From a virus (Duplodnaviria; Heunggongvirae; Uroviricota; Caudoviricetes): 42,889 bases of DNA. The stretch lies in the IMG/VR virus record IMGVR_UViG_2703718853_000004; one strand, written 5' to 3'. Numbering within the stretch: the first letter of the stretch is position 1; the number at the start of each line of letters is the position of its first letter. The notes beneath the pieces were generated by a model. The model was given only the letters and a program-made list of their open reading frames with translations. It searched no databases and was not told where the DNA came from. The position numbers and the translations under genes are program-made. Below are positions 888 to 42,889 of the stretch, in pieces.

Positions 888-2972
888 CTACATTGAGGGC
901 AACATTGATACATTAACGGTTCTTTCCAGACCATCAACATTTGTCAACTGAACAGTAACCAGACCGGTTGAGCTGTTAATGGACAATGATACCGTTACGC
1001 CAGTCCCTGAAAGCCCAATGCGTGCAGAGCTGGCAACAATTCCCGAGGTCAGGATATCCAGATAATAAAGATTCTCCCTTCTGAATCTGACGGGAATTTT
1101 AATATCGTCACCAAATGACTGGCTACCAATTCGACATTCAATTAGGATTGAACGGGTAATATATGTATCGAAAGAATTCTGGAATATGTTGGTCTTGGTC
1201 AGCGATAACGTTGCGCCCGCAGAGCCTGCTAACGTACCTGATGACTGTGAACCAATAATTCGCCTGCCTTTAACAACCTGGGTCATACCAATATTTACAT
1301 CGTCGTCCATACCAAGGTTGCCGGTTATCGACTTATTTAACGTGGTCGCCTTCTGGTTAATTGCTGAAGTAACAAAACCAGTCATGTCACTTCCGGAAAC
1401 CTGCAAGGTCCCCCCGCCAGAGCCAAGAGCCGATACGTTGTAGGATGGCGAGATTGTCCCTCCGTCACCGCTGTCATTCGCACCGACACCAGTTCTTACC
1501 CCTGAGAGTTCAATTTTACCGTCATCAATAATAATAAAGTTTGCGGAATAGTCATTACCCACGGGTTGATTAGCACCACTGCGCCGGACGTTAACGCCGT
1601 TTAAAATCCATGAGGATTTCGCCCCGGCGACCACACCTCCCCTTCCGGCCCTGTCGCACAGTTCGCCGAAAATCTGGTTCTCCACCGACTGGTACGCATA
1701 CCAGTTATCGCCGGTGTTCCATTCGTTCCGGCATCCTCCAAAAAAGTTATTGTTTGCCCCACCGGTAAGGGCCACTCCTCGATCATTAGCATTGATTGTG
1801 CAACCAAACATCATGGAGTCTATTAAATTCCTGACTCCATCCCCGTTTCCGGATATTGAGCAGAAATATGCTTTCATTGTTCCGATGTACCTGGCTGTTC
1901 CTCCTGAAGCCCAGCCAATCCCGATCGCAAACCGATAAAATCCGCACCCCTCAAGTCGGGTGCCGTTGAACTGGGTTGCAGTATTTGGCGAATAAAAAAG
2001 GTACGTTGTTTTATCTCGGCCATCAAAAACAATATCCCGGAATACATGCCTGCCTGTTGAATAAAATGGAAAACTTGCACCAGCTGCTACGCGGATGACG
2101 ACTCCGCAATTCAGAAAACTGTTATCGTCATCAATTGTATATGGGCGTCGGCAACCCCACCCTATAAATTGAAAACCTAATGGAAGCATTGCGGGGTCAA
2201 GCCCGAAATTTAACGCACCGACATTCCACGGAATATCCAGTACCATCACTCCATCAGCTATAGCTTTTTTTAACGCGTAGTCAGCGATAACATTAACGCC
2301 AGGAATTGTGAGCAACGCCTGCTGATCAGCTTCAGTAAGGTATTCAAAAATCGAGGAGCGAATGATTCTGGCCAGAGGTGAGGCGTTCCGGTAAACCTTC
2401 ATTGCTCCTTCGCCTGAACCCAGGTCTTGGCGAAGCGTATCACCATCCATCAGAACGAAGTGAGTAACGTCGTTCGCAAAGCTGGTCGCATCGGTTCCGG
2501 TGGTCGTAAAGCCGACGTCAGTAGCAGCATTCAGGCGGTAATACTCATTGTCGTAACGGATGTACTGGTTACGGGCACTAAACTGGAATGGGCCGTCCTG
2601 ATAATCGCCAAGGAACACGTATCCTGAAGTATTCAGGAACTGCTGAAAGCGGTTTTCTTTATCAGATTGAGATTCTGAAAATGTTGATTCCTGCGCCGAT
2701 AACTGAGAGGAGAAGCGCGATTCAAATTCATTTGATTTTTCTTCGAAAGAGGATTCCCTTTCGGATTGAGATAATTCAAAGGTATCTTGTTGTTCATTAA
2801 GTTGGTTATCAGACTTTACATTGATGCCATGCAGAGTGTCTAACTGCTTACCTGTACGCGTGGTAATAGTTTCATCACTACTATTAGCGAACCTGTCAAT
2901 AGACTGCATATTATCCCATGCATCAGGTATTGATGCAGACGGCACAGGATTGCCGGTATCGTATTCACTCAT
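888..2972 (-). CDS. Tailspike / tail fiber protein with putative beta-helix domain (possible polysaccharide depolymerase)
   Basis: 694 aa; conserved-looking N-terminal anchor region; Gly/Asn/Thr/Ser-rich repetitive central and C-terminal region typical of receptor-binding beta-helix proteins; last gene of the tail module. Confidence 0.7.
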   Translation of the reverse strand: MSEYDTGNPVPSASIPDAWDNMQSIDRFANSSDETITTRTGKQLDTLHGINVKSDNQLNEQQDTFELSQSERESSFEEKSNEFESRFSSQLSAQESTFSESQSDKENRFQQFLNTSGYVFLGDYQDGPFQFSARNQYIRYDNEYYRLNAATDVGFTTTGTDATSFANDVTHFVLMDGDTLRQDLGSGEGAMKVYRNASPLARIIRSSIFEYLTEADQQALLTIPGVNVIADYALKKAIADGVMVLDIPWNVGALNFGLDPAMLPLGFQFIGWGCRRPYTIDDDNSFLNCGVVIRVAAGASFPFYSTGRHVFRDIVFDGRDKTTYLFYSPNTATQFNGTRLEGCGFYRFAIGIGWASGGTARYIGTMKAYFCSISGNGDGVRNLIDSMMFGCTINANDRGVALTGGANNNFFGGCRNEWNTGDNWYAYQSVENQIFGELCDRAGRGGVVAGAKSSWILNGVNVRRSGANQPVGNDYSANFIIIDDGKIELSGVRTGVGANDSGDGGTISPSYNVSALGSGGGTLQVSGSDMTGFVTSAINQKATTLNKSITGNLGMDDDVNIGMTQVVKGRRIIGSQSSGTLAGSAGATLSLTKTNIFQNSFDTYITRSILIECRIGSQSFGDDIKIPVRFRRENLYYLDILTSGIVASSARIGLSGTGVTVSLSINSSTGLVTVQLTNVDGLERTVNVSMLPSM

Positions 2973-9927: not shown

Positions 9928-10527
9928 TTAACCTCCCGAGATGAAACCGACAAACCGGCTTAGTAGCGACTCATCTTTCGGAGTCGGCGTCTTTACCCCT
10001 GAGTTTTGCACCGCTGACGTGTTCACCCCCTCTTTCATGTTTTCCTTCGCTGCCACGCTGACTGTCTGCGTCTGACTGGTGATTATTTCCCTGAGCGTAA
10101 CTGTCGCCATCAGTACGTTTTCGCTGGTACGTTCGGTCGTCACATCCAGAGAGCGGATCACCATATTGGTATAAAGACGTTTCCCGGTGGTCACATCAAG
10201 CAACTGCCTTTCCTGCTGCATTTTGAGCAGCTCAGCATAGACTTCCTTAGGCCCCATGTTGTTAAGGGGCGTAGACAGCCCGATGCCTGCTGTATCATAA
10301 AAATCCAGCAAGGAACCACCACCAGCAAAGCCTATCTCCATAACGACTTCTGACGGGCGCCGATATGCATGGTCTGCAATGAACCCTGTTCCTGCGCTTG
10401 TAGGCCTTTCAACTGGATGCTCTGTCACCTCCAGAGCATCGCTATGACGCTCTGAAACCACCACGTCGGGTATCATCAGACCAATACGGCGGCTCCGCTG
10501 CTGGAAAAGGGTTGAAAGAATATCCAT
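9928..10527 (-). CDS. Tail protein (199 aa)
   Basis: Immediately downstream of the tape measure gene. Confidence 0.5.
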   Translation of the reverse strand: MDILSTLFQQRSRRIGLMIPDVVVSERHSDALEVTEHPVERPTSAGTGFIADHAYRRPSEVVMEIGFAGGGSLLDFYDTAGIGLSTPLNNMGPKEVYAELLKMQQERQLLDVTTGKRLYTNMVIRSLDVTTERTSENVLMATVTLREIITSQTQTVSVAAKENMKEGVNTSAVQNSGVKTPTPKDESLLSRFVGFISGG

Positions 10528-12527
10528 CAGCTCGGCCCCCGGGTTAGTTGCTGGGTTGCGCGTGCATTAACGTTGCCCTGGCTTTCAGAGACGATTTTCC
10601 CCGCCTCTCTCGGATCGCTGATACCAGAAATGTTGATGACGGTATTCTGGTTCAATGTCGCGCCAGCCCCCGGCATATTGCTCAATACCTTGGGGATATA
10701 TTGCCTGGTTTCCTGCGGCATCAGCGCCATGCCGTACTTCTGCACGTTACCAATCCCCCAGTTATAGGAGGCCAGAGCTTTACCCAGATCGCCGCCGTTC
10801 TTCTGCAGGAGCATCGAAAGATATCGCGCCGCCGCTTCCGCTGACTTGATCGGGTCGAAGACATCATTCCCGTGTAGCCCCATATCCCGAGCGGTACCAG
10901 GCATAAACTGGAACATCCCTTGTGCGCCAGCACCGGATACAGCGAACTGATCCCCCCCTGATTCAGTGATAGCGACACTTCGCAGAAGACCAGAAGGCAG
11001 GTTATACATAGCCTCCAGTTTACCCATCATCGGAGCCATCCATCCAAGCAACTGAGCCCCTGCTTTTGAAGGTGACGGTCGTTTAACTGATTGCCCGTAC
11101 TGCGTGGCATCACCATTCCACCAGTCAACAGCCTTATCCCATAACCCCTGCCCGACAGAGGCGGCACCCTGAATAACTGGACTGTCACTCCACGCTGCGG
11201 CTGCGCCTTTAAGCGAATCCCATGCGCCGGAGAAATCACCACTAATAACCTTTCGCAGCGCATCCACCAGCGAACCAAGGATTTTGATTGAACTGCGGAC
11301 GCTTTCGATAATCTGGTCAAACAGCCATTTGCCATTAAATTTCGACGTGTCGATATTAATGAATTCAAGGAATCGCTTACCCAGATCGAGAATGGCAGAA
11401 CCTAGGTCTTTAACCTTCACATAGATGCCACCGAAGTCCTTACTCAGGCTGGCAAAAGCCTTTTGGGCATATTTGATACCCGGCTCCCATTTTCCCCAGT
11501 CTATAAGCGACTGGCCGCCTTCTTTCCATGTGCGGTAATCGTCGTAGAGACCTATCAGCGCAGCACCCAGCATAATGACGCGCCCAATAGGCGACATCGC
11601 AAAGGCACTATTCAGGAGACGCCAGGCAATCATTAGCGCCCCAAACACCTCGATAACCTGTCTGGTTTCGGTACCGAGTGATTTCCACCAGTTGATAATG
11701 TCCCCGGTGAGCTGTATCAACCGATAAACCACCCGGCCAATGATTTCACCAAACCACAGGACACCTTTGATACCAGCAGTGATAGCCCCTTCAATTTTCG
11801 GGAAATTCTCCATGATCTGACGGCGCAGCCTGTCGAGAGAGCCAGCAAGTCCATCAGCGAGACTGGAGCCGATTTTATCCCGTGCCATGCCTGCCATCAG
11901 CCCAAAGGAGCGCAGCGAGGTCATGAATTTATTGGAGCTGACGGCGGCCACATCGGCGTTATAGCCGATCGCCTTCGCCATCGCGGTGTATTCGCCACTA
12001 AACTGGCCGATACCGCGACGCATTGCCATCAGGGTGTTTTCATCCAGACCCAGCATCTGAGCGTACTGGTTCGCGCGGTAATACGGCATGCTGCTAAGAC
12101 GCTGGCCGACGCCGGTAAAGATCGTCGCCATATCCCGCATGTTGCCGCTGGCATCACGCGTTTGAACTCCCAGCCGGTTGAGGAAACCCTCAGCGCCGGG
12201 ATTGTTACGCATGAACCGGGCAAGATTTTCGAGAGAGCCGCGGGCCCCGTCGACACTGCCGCCAACCTGACTAACTGCATACCCTATCTGCTTAATACCC
12301 TCTACCGTCGCGCCTGTGCGCTGAGAGGCCCAGTACAGGTCGTCGAGACCGCTGGCAATTTTCGCGGTGAATGCAACGACGGAAAGCGCCGCCGCCTCAA
12401 CTTTGACGCCCAGCTCAATCGCTTTAAGCGTTGTCCCGGCAACGACGGCATCGAATTTTCTGGCGCCAGCCTCATCAACTTTGAACCCAAGCGAGATCAG
12501 AAAGTCCTTGAGCGTTTCAGCGTTCAT
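10527..12527 (-). CDS. Tail tape measure protein with C-terminal lytic transglycosylase (SLT) domain
   Basis: 666 aa; Ala/Gly-rich helical N-terminal part; C-terminal ITESGGDQFAVSGAGAQGMFQFMPGTARDMGL matches the SLT catalytic-region pattern; follows chaperone, tube and sheath genes. Confidence 0.75.
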   Translation of the reverse strand: MNAETLKDFLISLGFKVDEAGARKFDAVVAGTTLKAIELGVKVEAAALSVVAFTAKIASGLDDLYWASQRTGATVEGIKQIGYAVSQVGGSVDGARGSLENLARFMRNNPGAEGFLNRLGVQTRDASGNMRDMATIFTGVGQRLSSMPYYRANQYAQMLGLDENTLMAMRRGIGQFSGEYTAMAKAIGYNADVAAVSSNKFMTSLRSFGLMAGMARDKIGSSLADGLAGSLDRLRRQIMENFPKIEGAITAGIKGVLWFGEIIGRVVYRLIQLTGDIINWWKSLGTETRQVIEVFGALMIAWRLLNSAFAMSPIGRVIMLGAALIGLYDDYRTWKEGGQSLIDWGKWEPGIKYAQKAFASLSKDFGGIYVKVKDLGSAILDLGKRFLEFINIDTSKFNGKWLFDQIIESVRSSIKILGSLVDALRKVISGDFSGAWDSLKGAAAAWSDSPVIQGAASVGQGLWDKAVDWWNGDATQYGQSVKRPSPSKAGAQLLGWMAPMMGKLEAMYNLPSGLLRSVAITESGGDQFAVSGAGAQGMFQFMPGTARDMGLHGNDVFDPIKSAEAAARYLSMLLQKNGGDLGKALASYNWGIGNVQKYGMALMPQETRQYIPKVLSNMPGAGATLNQNTVINISGISDPREAGKIVSESQGNVNARATQQLTRGPS

Positions 12528-32419: not shown

Positions 32420-33264
32420 GACCGGTTCTCCCGATAGCTGTCCCAGGTAAACGAAATCGTGCAGCCGCCGCCGTCGTTCATGCGGTCGATGACGCGCTCG
32501 CCGATAAACTGCGTCAGCTCATCCTTCGGCAGGTTGCTGATCAGGATCGTCGGCTTCAGGCGCTCGTAGCGGGTGTTGATGATTTCAAACATGATCATCT
32601 TCTCGGCTTCGCTACCAAACTGAATGCCTACCTCGTCGATAATCAGCAGGTCCGGCTTGGTGAAGAAGCGGATCACATCTTCCTCGGAGCGGGTCGCCGT
32701 CTTTGACCAGGTGGATTTAAACTCTCGGGCGATTTTCAGCGCAGTGGTGAACACGACCGGGCTCTGGTGCTCTGCGATAACGCTTTTCGCAATTGCATAG
32801 GCCAGGTGGTTTTTCCCCGTGCCGGGTTTTCCGCACATAACCAGGCCGCCACCGTTCTTCCGGCGATCTGGCCAGCGGCTGGCGTACGCTCGGCAGACTT
32901 TCAGCGCCCGCGCCGCTTCTTCGCTTACCGGATGGTAGTTATCCAGAGTGCAGGCTTCGAACCGGGCCGGGACCTTGAGCTCCAGCATCAGGCGCTCAAC
33001 ATTCGCAGTGCGATTTCTGTCATCCGATTTGGCCTTCTCGTTTCGCAGGAAAACGAGCTCATCTTTCAGGCATCCAGGGCAGCTTGTCGGCGCCCCTGGC
33101 AGACGGACAAGGCCAGTTGATACGCGCTGGCGTTGCTCATAGTCGCCGTGCTTTTCGCAGACCACTAACTGCTTAATGACTTCAGTGTTTGGGATGTCCA
33201 GTGCTGGCTGTGAAAGCTCCTGCAGCTGTTTTTCAACCAGGGTGATTCGTTCGTCCAGGTTCAT
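32416..33264 (-). CDS. DnaC-like replicative helicase loader (AAA+ ATPase)
   Basis: Walker A CGKPGTGKNHLAYAIA and Walker B LLIIDEVG; follows the O-like initiator gene. Confidence 0.75.
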   Translation of the reverse strand: MNLDERITLVEKQLQELSQPALDIPNTEVIKQLVVCEKHGDYEQRQRVSTGLVRLPGAPTSCPGCLKDELVFLRNEKAKSDDRNRTANVERLMLELKVPARFEACTLDNYHPVSEEAARALKVCRAYASRWPDRRKNGGGLVMCGKPGTGKNHLAYAIAKSVIAEHQSPVVFTTALKIAREFKSTWSKTATRSEEDVIRFFTKPDLLIIDEVGIQFGSEAEKMIMFEIINTRYERLKPTILISNLPKDELTQFIGERVIDRMNDGGGCTISFTWDSYRENRS

Positions 33265-34121
33265 TGTTGATCCCTCATCCAGTCCGGAAGTTCGGTTTTT
33301 CCGTAGTCTTTGTCAGCGAATCGCTCGGTGACACGTGACTCCTGTCGGCGTTGCGGTCTGGCGCCTTTTGGCTCAAATAGGCCCTGCCAGCCATTCGCGA
33401 TGCTCTGGTTAATAATTTCTTCAGGGGAGTAACCGTTCAGCCGGCAGCGGTCCAGCAGGTTGATAGCCTGGGTGACCGTCTGCTGAGACTTGATCGGCTT
33501 TTTCAGGTCGCGACGATATGCCACCCATGACGACCAGATTTCTGCAGAAAGCCAGTCAGGCAACTGAACAGCTAACGCATCGAACGAAACCGCCCGGGGG
33601 GATTTAGGGGGGTTATTAATATTGTCTTTATTGTCTTTTGTATGTTTGTCTTTTGTGTTTACCTGATTCGGGTAATAGGCGTTACCTGATTCGGGTAAAC
33701 TTTTCTTACCTGATTCGGGTAATGTTACCTTTTTCAGGTAAGGTCTCTTTTCTGTACCTTTTACGGGTAAAGATGACCATTCGCTGACCGTTTTATTAAT
33801 CCCGATAACACGACCGGTTTGAGTTAATATCCCCCGCTTAACCAGGACGCTTTTTGCAGCTGAGCACTTATGCGGGAGAATGCCGGTCAGCTCCGAAAGC
33901 TGCTCGTTACTGACCCAGTCAGATTTCTTGTTGAAGCCGTATGTTTTGCGCATGACAGCCATGAACACCAAAAGCTGATGCTGCGACAAACCCGCACGCA
34001 TGACAGCTTCAAGGAGCTCATTGGCGATGCGCGTAAACCCATCGTCGAGATCTGCCACGCGCAGCTCCTGTAGTGCCACGACAGGCACAGGGAAATTGAT
34101 TACCTCGGCAGTATTTGCCAT
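33261..34121 (-). CDS. Replication initiator (lambda O-like replisome organizer)
   Basis: 286 aa; contains the iteron array within its coding sequence; directly upstream of the helicase loader. Confidence 0.65.
   Translation of the reverse strand: MANTAEVINFPVPVVALQELRVADLDDGFTRIANELLEAVMRAGLSQHQLLVFMAVMRKTYGFNKKSDWVSNEQLSELTGILPHKCSAAKSVLVKRGILTQTGRVIGINKTVSEWSSLPVKGTEKRPYLKKVTLPESGKKSLPESGNAYYPNQVNTKDKHTKDNKDNINNPPKSPRAVSFDALAVQLPDWLSAEIWSSWVAYRRDLKKPIKSQQTVTQAINLLDRCRLNGYSPEEIINQSIANGWQGLFEPKGARPQRRQESRVTERFADKDYGKTELPDWMRDQQ
33659..33770. repeat. Iteron array (candidate replication origin) inside the O-like gene
   Basis: TTACCTGATTCGGGTAA at 33659, 33682 and 33706, degenerate copies at 33725 and 33755; AT-rich TTGTCTTTT repeats just before. 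Confidence 0.6.
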
Positions 34122-38700: not shown

Positions 38701-39377
38701 CACCAGAAATTATCCTTGCACGCACTGGCATTGACGTTACCCGCATTGAACAGGGGGATGAATCCTGGCACCGCTTACGCCTCGGCGTGATCACTGCCTC
38801 GGAAGTTCACAACGTCATTTCTAAGCCCAAGTCAGGCAAGAAATGGACTGATATGAAGATGTCCTACTTCCTTACGCTCCTTGCCGAAGTGTGCACCGGC
38901 GTGGCGCCGGAAGTTAACGCCAAGGCGCTGGCCTGGGGGAAACAGTATGAGGCCGACGCTCGCACCCTGTTTGAGTTCACCACCGACGTGCAGGTAACCG
39001 AGTCGCCGATCCTTTTCCGTGACGAAGGTATGCGCACCGCCTGCTCACCAGACGGCCTGTGCAGTGATGGCCGAGGCCTTGAGCTGAAGTGCCCTTTCAC
39101 CTCTCGCGACTTCATGAAATTTCGGCTTGGCGGCTTCGAGGCTATCAAATCCGCCTACATGGCCCAGGTGCAATTCAGCATGTGGGTAACCGGTAAGGAT
39201 GCATGGTATTTCGCGAATTATGACCCTCGCATGAAGCGAGAAGGCATTCACCACGTGGTTGTTGAGCGCGACGACAAATACATGTCCGACTTCAACGAAA
39301 TGGTGCCGGAGTTCATCAGCAAGATGGATGAATCGCTGTCGGAGATCGGTTTCACCTTCGGGGAGCAGTGGAAATGA
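38697..39377 (+). CDS. Phage 5'-3' exonuclease (YqaJ / lambda Exo-like)
   Basis: 226 aa; ATGA-coupled downstream of recT; acidic residues and ELKCP region consistent with PD-(D/E)xK-type nuclease. Confidence 0.7.
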
Positions 39378-39532
39378 AACATTACCGCGACGCCATAACC
39401 GTAGGAAAAGTGAAGTGCATGTACTCCGTCCTTCATCGTGGCTGGCTAATGCCATCTGGTGAAGTGGTAAGAAACCCGTTAAAGGCTCAGCGGATGGCTG
39501 AAGAGCTGGCCACGAAAAGAGGTGCGCAATGA
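39374..39532 (+). CDS. Hypothetical small protein (52 aa)
   Basis: ATGA-coupled between exonuclease and methyltransferase genes. Confidence 0.35.
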
Positions 39533-40056
39533 CTGATTACGGCGGATCGAAAACTCCAAAAAATGAACGTGACTACTGGCAAACACCGATTGAAATTTTC
39601 AATGCGCTCGACCGCGAGTTTGGCTTCTGGCTGGATGCTGCAGCCTCTGAGAGTAATGCGCTATGTGCTCACTACCTCACTGAGCTGGATGACTCGCTGA
39701 ACAGTGAATGGACGTCATACGGGGCAATATGGTGTAACCCGCCCTATTCCGATATTGGGCCGTGGGTGGAAAAGGCAGCCGAGCAATCCCGGGCGCAGTC
39801 TCAGGCCGTCGTGATGTTGTTACCGGCTGACATTTCTACCGGCTGGTTTATTTCAGCCATGCAATCAGCTGATGAACTCAGACTCATAACCGGCGGCCGT
39901 GTTCAGTTTGTTCCGGCATCCGTTACAGGAAAGCGCCGGAGCAACCCCAAAGGCTCGCTTCTGTTTATCTGGCGTCCGTACATCACCCCGCGACACATCA
40001 TCACGACTGTATCGCTGGCTGAGTTAAAGCGGATCGGGAATCTGGAGGCTGCATGA
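39529..40056 (+). CDS. DNA N6-adenine methyltransferase (phage Dam-like, orphan)
   Basis: 175 aa; NPPY catalytic motif in IWCNPPYSD; no adjacent restriction endonuclease gene. Confidence 0.75.
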   Translation: MTDYGGSKTPKNERDYWQTPIEIFNALDREFGFWLDAAASESNALCAHYLTELDDSLNSEWTSYGAIWCNPPYSDIGPWVEKAAEQSRAQSQAVVMLLPADISTGWFISAMQSADELRLITGGRVQFVPASVTGKRRSNPKGSLLFIWRPYITPRHIITTVSLAELKRIGNLEAA

Positions 40057-40196
40057 CGCCAGAAGAAAAAGAAAACGCTCTCCGCGCCCAGGCTCGTCGC
40101 TGCGCAGAAGAGATAACCAAAGCGATGAGCGTAAAGCCTAAACCGAAGTGGAACGCTGTATGCCCCCCATCCTTCGCAAGCACTACGAGAAGGTAA
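40053..40196 (+). CDS. Hypothetical small protein (47 aa), possibly the 5' part of a frameshifted gene
   Basis: ATGA-coupled to the methyltransferase; overlaps the next ORF by 37 nt at a C6 homopolymer (40163..40168). Confidence 0.3.
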   Translation: MTPEEKENALRAQARRCAEEITKAMSVKPKPKWNAVCPPSFASTTRR

Positions 40197-40273
40197 AGCC
40201 GATGGGTGTCAGCCTGGTGAAATTTGTCAGTGTTATTGGCCGCATGAATGGGCGGTATGGAGTGGAATCATGA
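40160..40273 (+). CDS. Hypothetical small protein (37 aa), possibly the 3' part of a frameshifted gene
   Basis: Starts at the C6 tract; ATGA-coupled to the downstream gene. Confidence 0.25.
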   Translation: MPPILRKHYEKVKPMGVSLVKFVSVIGRMNGRYGVES

Positions 40274-40470
40274 GCAAGTATCCAAGAGTCGGCAGTGTTG
40301 CTGCCAAAAGCAAAAATACCTCTGCCAGATGCAAATGCGGTGCAGTTGCGAAGTTTAAAACCACGGTTGAAGTAAATGTTTTCCGTGGTGATGACGAAGT
40401 GGTCTGGACTTGTAACGAGCACAAAAAAGACTGCTCATTTTTAGTCGGCGGGCAAGGCGGTGCTGTATGA
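40270..40470 (+). CDS. Hypothetical Cys-containing small protein (66 aa)
   Basis: CKCG...CNEH pattern suggests a metal-binding ribbon; coupled to neighbours. Confidence 0.4.
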   Translation: MSKYPRVGSVAAKSKNTSARCKCGAVAKFKTTVEVNVFRGDDEVVWTCNEHKKDCSFLVGGQGGAV

Positions 40471-41123
40471 AAGAACGCGGAATGATTTTTAACGGGGAGA
40501 TGGTGCGGGCCATTCTCGACGGACGGAAGACGCAGACGCGGCGCCCGGTAAAGTTTCCGGTTTTAGATAAAAACCTTGGGTGCGAGCTGGCTGGCAATGA
40601 ACTGGCTGGGGAGCTGTCGGCAGGCAACTATCTGAACAGCGCATTTGGTAAACCAGGCGATCGAGTTTGGGTGCGCGAGACGTGGGGAGTCGTCAGTCAC
40701 GAACTTGATGAGTATGGTCGAATCCAACCATGGACGCCAAACCGACCTGCTACAGCCATTCACGAAATGCCGTTTGGCAATGGCTATTACTCTGGCCACG
40801 CCATTTATGCAGCTGATGGTGATTTTACCTGGGGTGATGACGATGGTTATGAAGATGGCCGTTCGTGCTGGAGGCCATCCATTCATATGCCGAAAGCAGC
40901 CAGCCGCATTCTGCTGGAAATCACCGACGTGCGCGTTGAGCGCCTACGCAGCATGAGCCAGGACGATGCACGCGCCGAGGGTGTTATTGCCGCATCTGGC
41001 CCTATGGAAGCCGGTTTAGCATTCCGCGAGCTGTGGGACTCAATCTACGGCGAGGAGAGCTGGAAAGCCAACCCCTGGGTTTGGGTTATCGAGTTCAAGC
41101 GAGTTGAAGGCGGTGCAGCATGA
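40467..41123 (+). CDS. ASCH/PUA-like domain phage protein (218 aa)
   Basis: N-terminal MIFNGEMVRAILDGRKTQTRRP resembles the conserved start of ASCH-domain prophage proteins (recalled, not searched). Confidence 0.45.
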   Translation: MKERGMIFNGEMVRAILDGRKTQTRRPVKFPVLDKNLGCELAGNELAGELSAGNYLNSAFGKPGDRVWVRETWGVVSHELDEYGRIQPWTPNRPATAIHEMPFGNGYYSGHAIYAADGDFTWGDDDGYEDGRSCWRPSIHMPKAASRILLEITDVRVERLRSMSQDDARAEGVIAASGPMEAGLAFRELWDSIYGEESWKANPWVWVIEFKRVEGGAA

Positions 41124-41338
41124 GCGCAAAACTCATCGATCAGGCTAACGAGCTGGCAGAGCGCCGGCTGGAAATGACCATCCATAACATGCGCATCAAC
41201 CATGCTGCAGTTTCAGCTACCCACTGCCGCGACTGCGGGGAAGAGATACCCGAGCGGCGCCGGGAACTGGTGGCGGGCTGCCAGCGCTGCGCTGACTGTC
41301 AGGAAGAGTTTGAAGAACGTGGCAAGCACCAGAGGTGA
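41120..41338 (+). CDS. TraR/DksA-family C4 zinc-finger protein
   Basis: 72 aa with CRDCGEEIP...CQRCADCQ four-Cys motif. Confidence 0.65.
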   Translation: MSAKLIDQANELAERRLEMTIHNMRINHAAVSATHCRDCGEEIPERRRELVAGCQRCADCQEEFEERGKHQR

Positions 41339-41341
41339 TGC

Positions 41342-41587
41342 ATGCAGACAATAATCCAGATCGAGCCAAACGAATGGGTTTCAGAGGACTTGCTGATGGC
41401 AGTCACAGGTATGAAGCGCGGTACCATTACACGGGCCCGCAAATCATCCTGGCTGCTTGGGCGTGAGTATAAGCACGTTTCCCCTGAAGGTGACCCAAAG
41501 CCAACCAGCGAATGCATGTACAACCGCAAAGCGGTAGACGCATGGATTCAGGCTCAAAAGCAACCATTGGGTGATCGGGCGGTATGA
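41342..41587 (+). CDS. Excisionase-like DNA-binding protein
   Basis: 81 aa ORF immediately upstream of the integrase gene. Confidence 0.5.
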   Translation: MQTIIQIEPNEWVSEDLLMAVTGMKRGTITRARKSSWLLGREYKHVSPEGDPKPTSECMYNRKAVDAWIQAQKQPLGDRAV

Positions 41588-41629
41588 AACAGGTAAGCTT
41601 ACACCGCTCCTGGACGTCGGGAGGGAACA

Positions 41630-42889
41630 ATGAGTAAAGAATCATACCCAACGGGCGTTGAGAACCACGGAAAATCACTCCGCATATGGTTCATTTTTAA
41701 AGGCAAGCGTGTCAGGGAAAATCTCGGTGTCCCTGACACCGCTAAAAACAGGAAGGTGGCCGGGGAACTGCGAACGTCAGTTTGTTTCGCTATCCGCATG
41801 GGGACCTTTGACTATGCTGCGCAATTCCCCAATTCGCCAAACCTGAAAACTTTCGGCATCTGCAAGAAAGAGATCACCGTGAAATTTCTGTCTGAAAAAT
41901 GGCTGGAGCTGAAACGGATGGAGATCTGCGCTAATGCCATAAACCGGTATGAATCGGTTGTCAGAAGCATGCTGCCGAGGATCGGCGCGAAAAAGCTGGT
42001 TTCGTGTGTGACAAGGGAAGAACTGCTGTATATCAGGAAGGATATGCTGTCGGGGGAGAAAGGGTTGAGCGTGGTAACGGTAAACTACTACATGTCCACG
42101 ATAGCGGGGATGTTTCAGTTTGCTGTTGATAATGGCTATGTGAGTGAAAACCCGTTTAACGGCATCAAGCCGCTAAAGAGGGCCAGGATAGAACCAGATC
42201 CGCTCACACGTGATGAATTCGTTCGCTTCATTGATGCCTGCAAGCATCAGCAAACGAAAAACCTGTGGTCAATTGCGGTATACACAGGATTACGTCACGG
42301 TGAGCTGGTCTCCCTCGCATGGGAAGATATAGATCTGAAAGCTGGAACGATGACCATACGCCGGAATTATACGAAACTCGGTGATTTCACTCTACCAAAA
42401 ACCGAAGCTGGTACCGACAGGGTCGTGCACCTGATCAAGCCTGCCATCGACGCTTTGAGGAACCAGGCAGAAATGACCAGGCTGGGAAGGCAGTATCAGA
42501 TTGAGGTGGCATTGCGGGAGTATGGCCGAACGGTTATTCACGACTGTACATTTGTGTTCAATCCTCAGTTGGTTAAAAAAAGTGGCAGCGTGGGTTACCT
42601 GTACAAAGCCGATTCAGTGGGTGACTCATGGGATGCGGCGCTTAAACGGTCAGGTTTAAGGCACCGGAAGGCGTATCAGTCGAGACACACTTACGCCTGC
42701 TGGTCGCTGTCTGCCGGGGCCAATCCGAGTTTCATTGCCAGCCAGATGGGACACGCCAGCGCCCAGATGGTTTTCAATGTTTACGGCGCCTGGATGGCCG
42801 ACAGCAGCAGCGATCAGATTGCCATGTTGAACCAGAAATTATCGGACTTTGCCCCATCCATGCCCCATGGCATGGTGATAGGAATATGA
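41630..42889 (+). CDS. int: Tyrosine integrase (phage integrase family)
   Basis: 419 aa; C-terminal catalytic-domain features (TGLRHGEL, HxxR-like SRHTYAC, terminal Tyr region); last gene at the prophage end, downstream of the excisionase-like gene. Confidence 0.85.
   Translation: MSKESYPTGVENHGKSLRIWFIFKGKRVRENLGVPDTAKNRKVAGELRTSVCFAIRMGTFDYAAQFPNSPNLKTFGICKKEITVKFLSEKWLELKRMEICANAINRYESVVRSMLPRIGAKKLVSCVTREELLYIRKDMLSGEKGLSVVTVNYYMSTIAGMFQFAVDNGYVSENPFNGIKPLKRARIEPDPLTRDEFVRFIDACKHQQTKNLWSIAVYTGLRHGELVSLAWEDIDLKAGTMTIRRNYTKLGDFTLPKTEAGTDRVVHLIKPAIDALRNQAEMTRLGRQYQIEVALREYGRTVIHDCTFVFNPQLVKKSGSVGYLYKADSVGDSWDAALKRSGLRHRKAYQSRHTYACWSLSAGANPSFIASQMGHASAQMVFNVYGAWMADSSSDQIAMLNQKLSDFAPSMPHGMVIGI
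42836..42869. repeat. Right copy of imperfect direct repeat with tandem ATGCCCCA motifs, inside the int 3' end
   Basis: TGCCCCATCCATGCCCCA at 42852..42869 versus 211..228. Confidence 0.4.

Follow-up and report, generated by a model that had tools for sequence, protein, structure and literature searches.

Two small open reading frames (ORFs) follow a methyltransferase gene in the viral DNA analysed here, a stretch of 42,889 nt called the window in what follows, and they overlap by 37 nt exactly at a run of six cytosines. Are they two genes, two frames connected by recoding or by a variable tract, or the two parts of one damaged gene? Re-reading of the DNA confirmed the 37-nt overlap and the C6 coordinates that had been given in the first-pass annotation (Table 1). 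Relative to ORF A, ORF B is read in the -1 frame (equivalent to +2); the mechanical ORF list starts it at a GTG at 40148, which gives 41 aa and an overlap of 49 nt. The C6 run is unremarkable by itself, the window containing 8 C6/G6 runs on both strands together versus 21.6 ± 6 expected from shuffles. The non-random feature is that both ORFs correspond to the same conserved protein family, each to one half of it. In ORF A, the first 39 residues are the N-terminus of the family protein; eight out-of-frame residues (SFASTTRR) and a TAA codon come next. ORF B is the C-terminal half of that protein, its best conserved section. In our assessment, the stretch 40053..40273 is quite probably a single lambdoid prophage gene broken by a frameshift, with a heritable C6 allele and a tract that is a slippage hot spot.

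Table 1. Features of the locus and of its surroundings, in window coordinates
Feature	Position	Strand	Description
RecT/Bet-like recombinase	37855	+	Upstream gene order
Lambda-type exonuclease	38697	+	After the recombinase
DUF1317	39368	+	After the exonuclease
Dam-type N6-adenine methyltransferase	39529..40056	+	PF05869, E = 1e-67; directly upstream of the 40053..40273 gene
Gene start region	40044..40056	+	Shine-Dalgarno GGAGG 40044-40048, ATG 40053, ATGA overlap with methyltransferase TGA 40054-40056
Frameshifted allele	40053..40273	+	221 nt; intact form 222 nt, 73 aa, PHROG 303 family
ORF A	40053..40196	+	47 aa; TAA stop 40194-40196
ORF B	40160..40273	+	37 aa from ATG; 37-nt overlap with ORF A; TGA stop 40271-40273
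C6 homopolymer	40163..40168	+	Exactly six bases, immediately 3' of the ORF B ATG
Heptamer C_CCC_CCA	40163..40169	+	Frame A; fits X_XXY_YYZ
Gene end	40259..40273	+	GGAG 40259-40262; ATGA, in which stop 40271-40273 overlaps the next gene's ATG 40270
Genes downstream of 40053..40273		+	In order: 66-aa gene, 218-aa PHROG 874 gene, TraR/DksA zinc-finger gene, excisionase, integrase

At the lesion, the sole difference between intact alleles and the window is one extra tract base, so that the tract reads C7 or C6T. The intact codons for Cys-Pro-Pro, TGC CCC CCC, create a run of seven C, whereas the window tract is C6. Intact copies with C7 are present in E. coli fM51a (WP_017898877.1) and in the Klebsiella phages KO-TP1 and 2 LV-2017, and E. 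coli DY612 (WP_021312740.1) has an intact copy with C6T. Adding one C to the window yields a gene of 222 nt for a 73-residue product, MTPEEKENALRAQARRCAEEITKAMSVKPKPKWNAVCPPILRKHYEKVKPMGVSLVKFVSVIGRMNGRYGVES. This corrects the size of about 84 aa that had been proposed for the fused protein. It also narrows the proposal that a single-C indel would fuse the ORFs: an insertion does so, C7 joining frames A and B, whereas a deletion to C5 leads into the third frame. A mutational frameshift, one of the options put forward in the first-pass annotation, is supported both by these alleles, which are one base longer, and by the label "frameshifted" assigned by PGAP in the five annotated E. coli records in which the pseudogene label was checked. 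Specifically, "hypothetical protein, frameshifted" is attached to the 221-nt copy in E. coli ST540, JNQH498, and ES2, and a second 221-nt background with the same lesion bears the same label in E. coli EC5 and strain 361. The lesion is already public, as identical sequence carries the "frameshifted" annotation in RefSeq E. coli. As a course of events, slippage during replication presumably removed one C from an intact TGC CCC CCC tract; ribosomes beginning at the usual start codon would then exit the frame at residue 40 and end after 47 residues, and the conserved C-terminal half would be left in the -1 frame as ORF B. The broken allele is probably non-functional or nearly so. The arrangement resembles other PGAP-flagged homopolymer frameshift pseudogenes, in which a one-base indel in a mononucleotide run has split a conserved ORF into two overlapping ORFs; there is no essential difference, apart from the repeated length changes of the same run across related prophages described below.

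The family to which the repaired protein belongs is PHROG 303 (unknown function), matched by residues 2-72 in one stretch (E = 4.5e-26). About 60 clusters of homologues of 71-76 aa, with identities down to approximately 60% and full-length alignment, were found in a large protein collection. A search with one genome per species returned eight loci, and those of 60-68% identity, from Trabulsiella guamensis, two Enterobacter, Silvania, and a Citrobacter, are uninterrupted ORFs. Their Val-Pro-Pro-Ile codons are GTG CCG CCG ATC, GTG CCT CCG, GTG CCA CCG, or GTT CCT CCA, and a homopolymer at the tract site was absent from the homologues examined in this identity range. Homologues show one ORF, and not the pair of separately conserved ORFs around a stable C6 tract by which the first-pass annotation would have been refuted. 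Note that a 63%-identical homologue is located on JBKEAL010000209.1, a 3.4-kb contig binned as a Parachlamydiaceae metagenome-assembled genome, which is probably a mis-binned contig.

The distribution of substitutions among 99 distinct alleles points in the same direction. Before the tract, 21 of the 36 third positions of frame A are variable, compared with 8 first positions and 4 second ones; 3' of the tract, 21 of the 35 third positions of frame B are variable, compared with 10 first and 10 second positions. A third-position bias in frame A before and in frame B after the tract is the mark of a single protein encoded continuously across it. As judged from these alleles and homologues, the single ORF is the ancestral, selected state. 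Two minus-strand ORFs, 40001..40183 and 40183..40422, were rejected as coding candidates; the third-position substitutions fit the plus-strand frames.

An AlphaFold model of the 73-aa protein, calculated with 15 homologues (pLDDT 84), features one three-helix unit with helices at residues 3-25, 33-51, and 55-65. The frameshift is positioned just inside helix 2 of the model, which suggests that the break would fall inside a single domain. The protein had no match in Pfam and only a sub-threshold match in NCBIfam; a profile search of PDB sequences found nothing, and Foldseek found nothing below E = 3 among PDB folds. Matches in BFVD were to uncharacterised phage proteins of approximately 70 aa only, for example of Xanthomonas phage DIBBI, with TM-scores of 0.7-0.8.

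The predicted fold bears on the possibility that the locus is now a split gene, with ORF B translated from its own ATG at 40160 and supplying the conserved C-terminal module alone. With the C6 tract, this ATG falls precisely into the frame of the conserved half, which then begins MPPIL, and this half is the part in which the family is best conserved. Moreover, shorter homologues of 48-63 aa exist that are devoid of the usual N-terminal half (P0076, P0083, and P0069), and in at least 14 E. coli genomes the 5' half has been swapped for unrelated sequence, which leaves just the 3' half with ATG and C6. An example of the latter is E. coli WCHEC035148 (approximately 901..1033 of the stretch examined), where the ATG-C6 and the whole 3' half are followed by the 66-aa gene of the window. 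PGAP, however, calls no gene at the remnant loci, and ORF B would be missing helix 1 of what is predicted to be a three-helix unit. The ATG at 40160 is preceded 8-10 nt upstream by a weak GGA only; it is in frame by a one-in-three chance and is out of frame in the intact majority. A use of ORF B in its own right is therefore very unlikely in our view, and one broken gene remains the preferred interpretation. A separate transcription unit for ORF B was considered as well and rejected: a promoter/terminator scan of 39300-41700 revealed no promoter-like site, and the terminator-like matches in this region lay on the opposite strand and had weak stems.

E. coli prophages commonly carry the C6 allele, which is inherited. 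The identical 221 nt are present in 27 complete E. coli genomes, with ES2 as one more that differs by a single base, and the second 221-nt background (approximately 95% identity) is found in 15 further E. coli genomes, whereas only 3 of 46 full-length E. coli copies have 222 nt. The exact 47-aa product of ORF A occurs on at least 1000 contigs (NCBI, JGI, ENA, and Logan) with E. coli names, and gene calls with the exact 37-aa product of ORF B exist on 477 contigs. The intact protein of 73 aa likewise occurs, in its exact form, on at least 1000 contigs, mostly of Klebsiella. These counts also speak against the suggestion that the window tract is truly C7 and was misread in sequencing or assembly. 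Homopolymers are typical error sites of several sequencing platforms, and the lesion does lie in such a tract. But a one-off error is excluded for an allele shared by 27 identical complete genomes from many laboratories and by the at least 1000 contigs with the exact 47-aa product, and we regard an error in the window as next to negligible.

Tract length was then compared across related prophages, a check proposed in the first-pass annotation, by scanning IMG/VR with exact flanks and any 4-14 nt as tract, which retrieved at least 120 loci. It varies from C5 to C11 among the matches listed. Among these matches, C7 was observed 78 times, C6 15 times, C8 8 times, CCCCACCCC 5 times, and C6T 4 times; rarer states were CCCACCC and C11 (2 each) and C5, C9, C7T, C6A, CCCTCCC, and CCCCTCT (1 each). 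Including the window, 86 of the 119 full-length copies among the matches listed are in frame and 33 (approximately 28%) are out of frame, the latter in six states (C5, C6, C8, C9, C11, and CCCCACCCC). All copies taken together, including those in annotated E. coli and phage records, represent 101 distinct haplotypes when the tract is masked, and identical masked haplotypes bear C6 and C7, C7 and C8, or C6 and C8. Parsimony on a neighbour-joining tree requires at least 21 changes between in-frame and out-of-frame states, compared with a mean of 29 and a minimum of 22 for random placement, indicating that the events are many and scattered. The protein collection additionally contains C10 alleles (VCPPPIL, 74 aa), their -1 derivatives C9 (VCPPPSFASTTRR*), and C8 products (VCPPHPSQALREG...), and several of these variants have tens of member sequences.

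Judging from these alleles, the tract is an indel hot spot in Klebsiella, Raoultella, and E. coli prophages. The recurrent tract changes observed here agree with a rule established for E. coli (PMC8510543), where the indel rate grows exponentially as a homopolymer becomes longer and G:C runs of 7-8 bp stand out as outlier hot spots. Some singleton tract variants in draft assemblies may be sequencing errors that inflate the hot-spot estimate. The out-of-frame share is alike in isolate contigs (approximately 28%) and metagenome contigs (approximately 24%), and several out-of-frame states recur on independent contigs. As a control for sequencing error, a C7 run at 10952..10958 of the window (plus strand, within the minus-strand 666-aa ORF 10527..12527) was compared and had 7 nt in all eight IMG/VR relatives with exact flanks, a result in the expected direction from a small sample. 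Elsewhere in the window, two G6 runs 5 nt apart (ggggggatttagggggg, 33596..33612) are located inside the minus-strand 286-aa ORF 33261..34121 in the replication-gene region.

Out-of-frame alleles displayed no sign of decay. Among the matches listed, further stop codons were absent from either half in 33 of 33 out-of-frame alleles. Synonymous and non-synonymous differences between out-of-frame alleles and their nearest in-frame relatives numbered 48:16, compared with 141:60 among in-frame alleles, a comparison of low power in which most differences predate the frameshifts; relaxed selection was not apparent from it. Given the lack of further stops and the undiminished synonymous bias, we read the out-of-frame events as recent, although the absence of decay would also fit halves, or a slipped product, that are still in use. 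Two observations argue that loss of the intact protein may be tolerated, at least in the lysogenic state. One is the lineage with the CCCCACCCC allele, which has 224 nt, is out of frame, and is identical in Klebsiella phage ST16-OXA48phi5.2, a sequenced phage, and five IMG/VR contigs; in the phage record (1721..1944 of the stretch examined), CCCCACCCC takes the place of C7 and the locus is annotated as a 147-nt ORF only. The other is the set of 3'-half remnants described above. The gene would accordingly seem dispensable for prophage maintenance.

A tract that changes length so often could be a contingency switch, a poly-C run kept because reversible slippage would alternate the gene between on and off states among the prophages; the first-pass annotation had considered a phase-variable switch. 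The range from C5 to C11, the out-of-frame share and the number of changes given above, the identical haplotypes with different tracts, the longer in-frame C10 alleles with their C9 derivatives, and the out-of-frame alleles without further decay are all in line with such a switch. As in the poly-G/C contingency loci of Neisseria, Haemophilus, and Campylobacter, the run is an intragenic poly-C tract whose changes flip the frame; here its length differs between prophage lineages and on identical gene haplotypes. The differences from these loci are nonetheless considerable. Classical contingency tracts usually have 8 or more G/C, whereas the run described here mostly has 6-7 and rarely 9-11, and the hosts are ordinarily mismatch-repair proficient. 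Within clones the tract is stable, being invariant in each clonal group of the complete E. coli genomes (27 identical ones and 15 of the second type), and distant homologues are without the run. Furthermore, the two variable synonymous sites of the tract have minor-allele frequencies of 0.04 and 0.08, like the other 31 fourfold sites (median 0.04, mean 0.09), so nothing indicates selection keeping the run. With clonal stability, absence from distant homologues, and no extra synonymous conservation, a phase-variable switch is unlikely, and the findings are better described by a broken gene with a slippage-prone tract.

The third proposal, a recoding site, concerns the heptamer C_CCC_CCA. In a programmed -1 frameshift, ribosomes would produce ORF A and the A-B fusion in a set ratio. 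The heptamer is a perfect X_XXY_YYZ in frame A, a -1 slip on it gives exactly the protein of the C7 allele, and the C6 allele is widespread. In the list of Sharma et al. 2014 (PMC4066793), C_CC.C_CC.A is under-represented in E. coli genes and frameshift-prone, its frameshifting exceeding 0.10% even when no stimulator is present. The locus thereby shares a zero-frame slippery heptamer and an overlapping -1 ORF with the programmed sites of dnaX, the IS3/IS911 transposases, and the phage tail chaperones G/GT, but it differs from them in having no stimulator and a layout of two ORFs that is not conserved and goes back to a single ancestral ORF. In detail, no frameshift is needed in 72% of the sampled copies or in any of the distant homologues, where a single frame encodes the protein. 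The 101 nt from the site (40160-40260) fold no better than shuffles (z = +0.98), and upstream of it the sequence offers nothing strong that resembles a stimulatory Shine-Dalgarno element, only GGA. No conserved counterpart exists for the eight out-of-frame residues at the end of ORF A, and the arrangement with the heptamer in frame is not common to the other broken alleles (CCCCACCCC, C8, and C11). Programmed frameshifting was consequently judged highly improbable.

Low-level adventitious slippage is a different matter. Since C_CC.C_CC.A is frameshift-prone even without stimulators (PMC4066793), -1 slippage on C_CCC_CCA could plausibly supply a trace of the 73-aa protein from the C6 allele, and as the motif is a measured frameshift-prone one, that allele may retain some function. 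Nothing points to such slippage being designed. Adventitious compensation of this kind has been reviewed for the G7 run of the herpes simplex virus thymidine kinase gene (Atkins et al. 2016, PMC5009743). That "savior indel" case likewise involves a viral gene disrupted by a ±1 indel within seven consecutive G/C, a run that is also slippery for ribosomes; there, however, rescue and benefit were demonstrated experimentally, whereas here slippage is predicted from sequence.

As a prophage, the window is lambdoid and of the Klebsiella/E. coli type, and the locus sits in its early-left operon, within a chain of genes linked by ATGA overlaps (Table 1; the names TraR/DksA zinc-finger, excisionase, and integrase were taken from annotated E. 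coli relatives). The upstream ATGA junction was found in 119 of 119 full-length copies among the matches listed. At the other end of the gene, GGAG 40259-40262 can serve as a Shine-Dalgarno sequence for the next gene; TCATGA is kept in all copies, and the string ...TATGGAGT.GA.TCATGA is retained in most homologues of 60-68% identity. The last codons, Tyr-Gly-Val-Glu-Ser (TATGGAGTGGAATCATGA, 40255..40273 of the window), hold both the GGAG and the ATGA of the next gene. As the same string is almost unchanged in most of these homologues, the C-terminus may be conserved through dual coding, its codons also serving translational coupling. At the downstream junction at 40270, different prophages continue from the same ATGA site with unrelated genes, at least a dozen in all, among them the 66-aa gene, an ASCH-like 218-aa gene, a phiTE_072 family gene, and an HNH endonuclease gene, which gives the junction the appearance of a mosaic recombination joint. 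The exact 218-aa PHROG 874 protein of the window (40467..41123), which has a weak ASCH-like match, is rare: it forms a one-member cluster of its own and occurs on 28 contigs, all of them E. coli-named. This suggests an E. coli origin of the window, although the 40053..40273 gene belongs mostly to Klebsiella prophages.

A slower form of switching may be envisaged for temperate Klebsiella/E. coli phages: reversible slippage between C6, C7, and C8 would toggle a small early-left protein, and in the off state ribosomes slipping by -1 on C_CCC_CCA, or by +1 on CCC_C where the allele is C8 or C11, would still produce traces of it. We consider such a true contingency switch distinctly unlikely. If it existed, it would explain why approximately 28% of the natural copies are out of frame without further decay, and a temperate enterobacterial phage would thereby join the examples of simple-sequence phase variation; the present evidence points otherwise. 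For annotation, the consequence is that the locus should be described as one frameshifted gene instead of two hypothetical proteins. Beyond that, the tract represents a well-sampled natural G:C homopolymer indel hot spot in prophages, with approximately 28% of the copies out of frame and at least 21 events, and it may be of use as a marker of prophage lineages or for testing how far ribosomes slip adventitiously on C_CCC_CCA.
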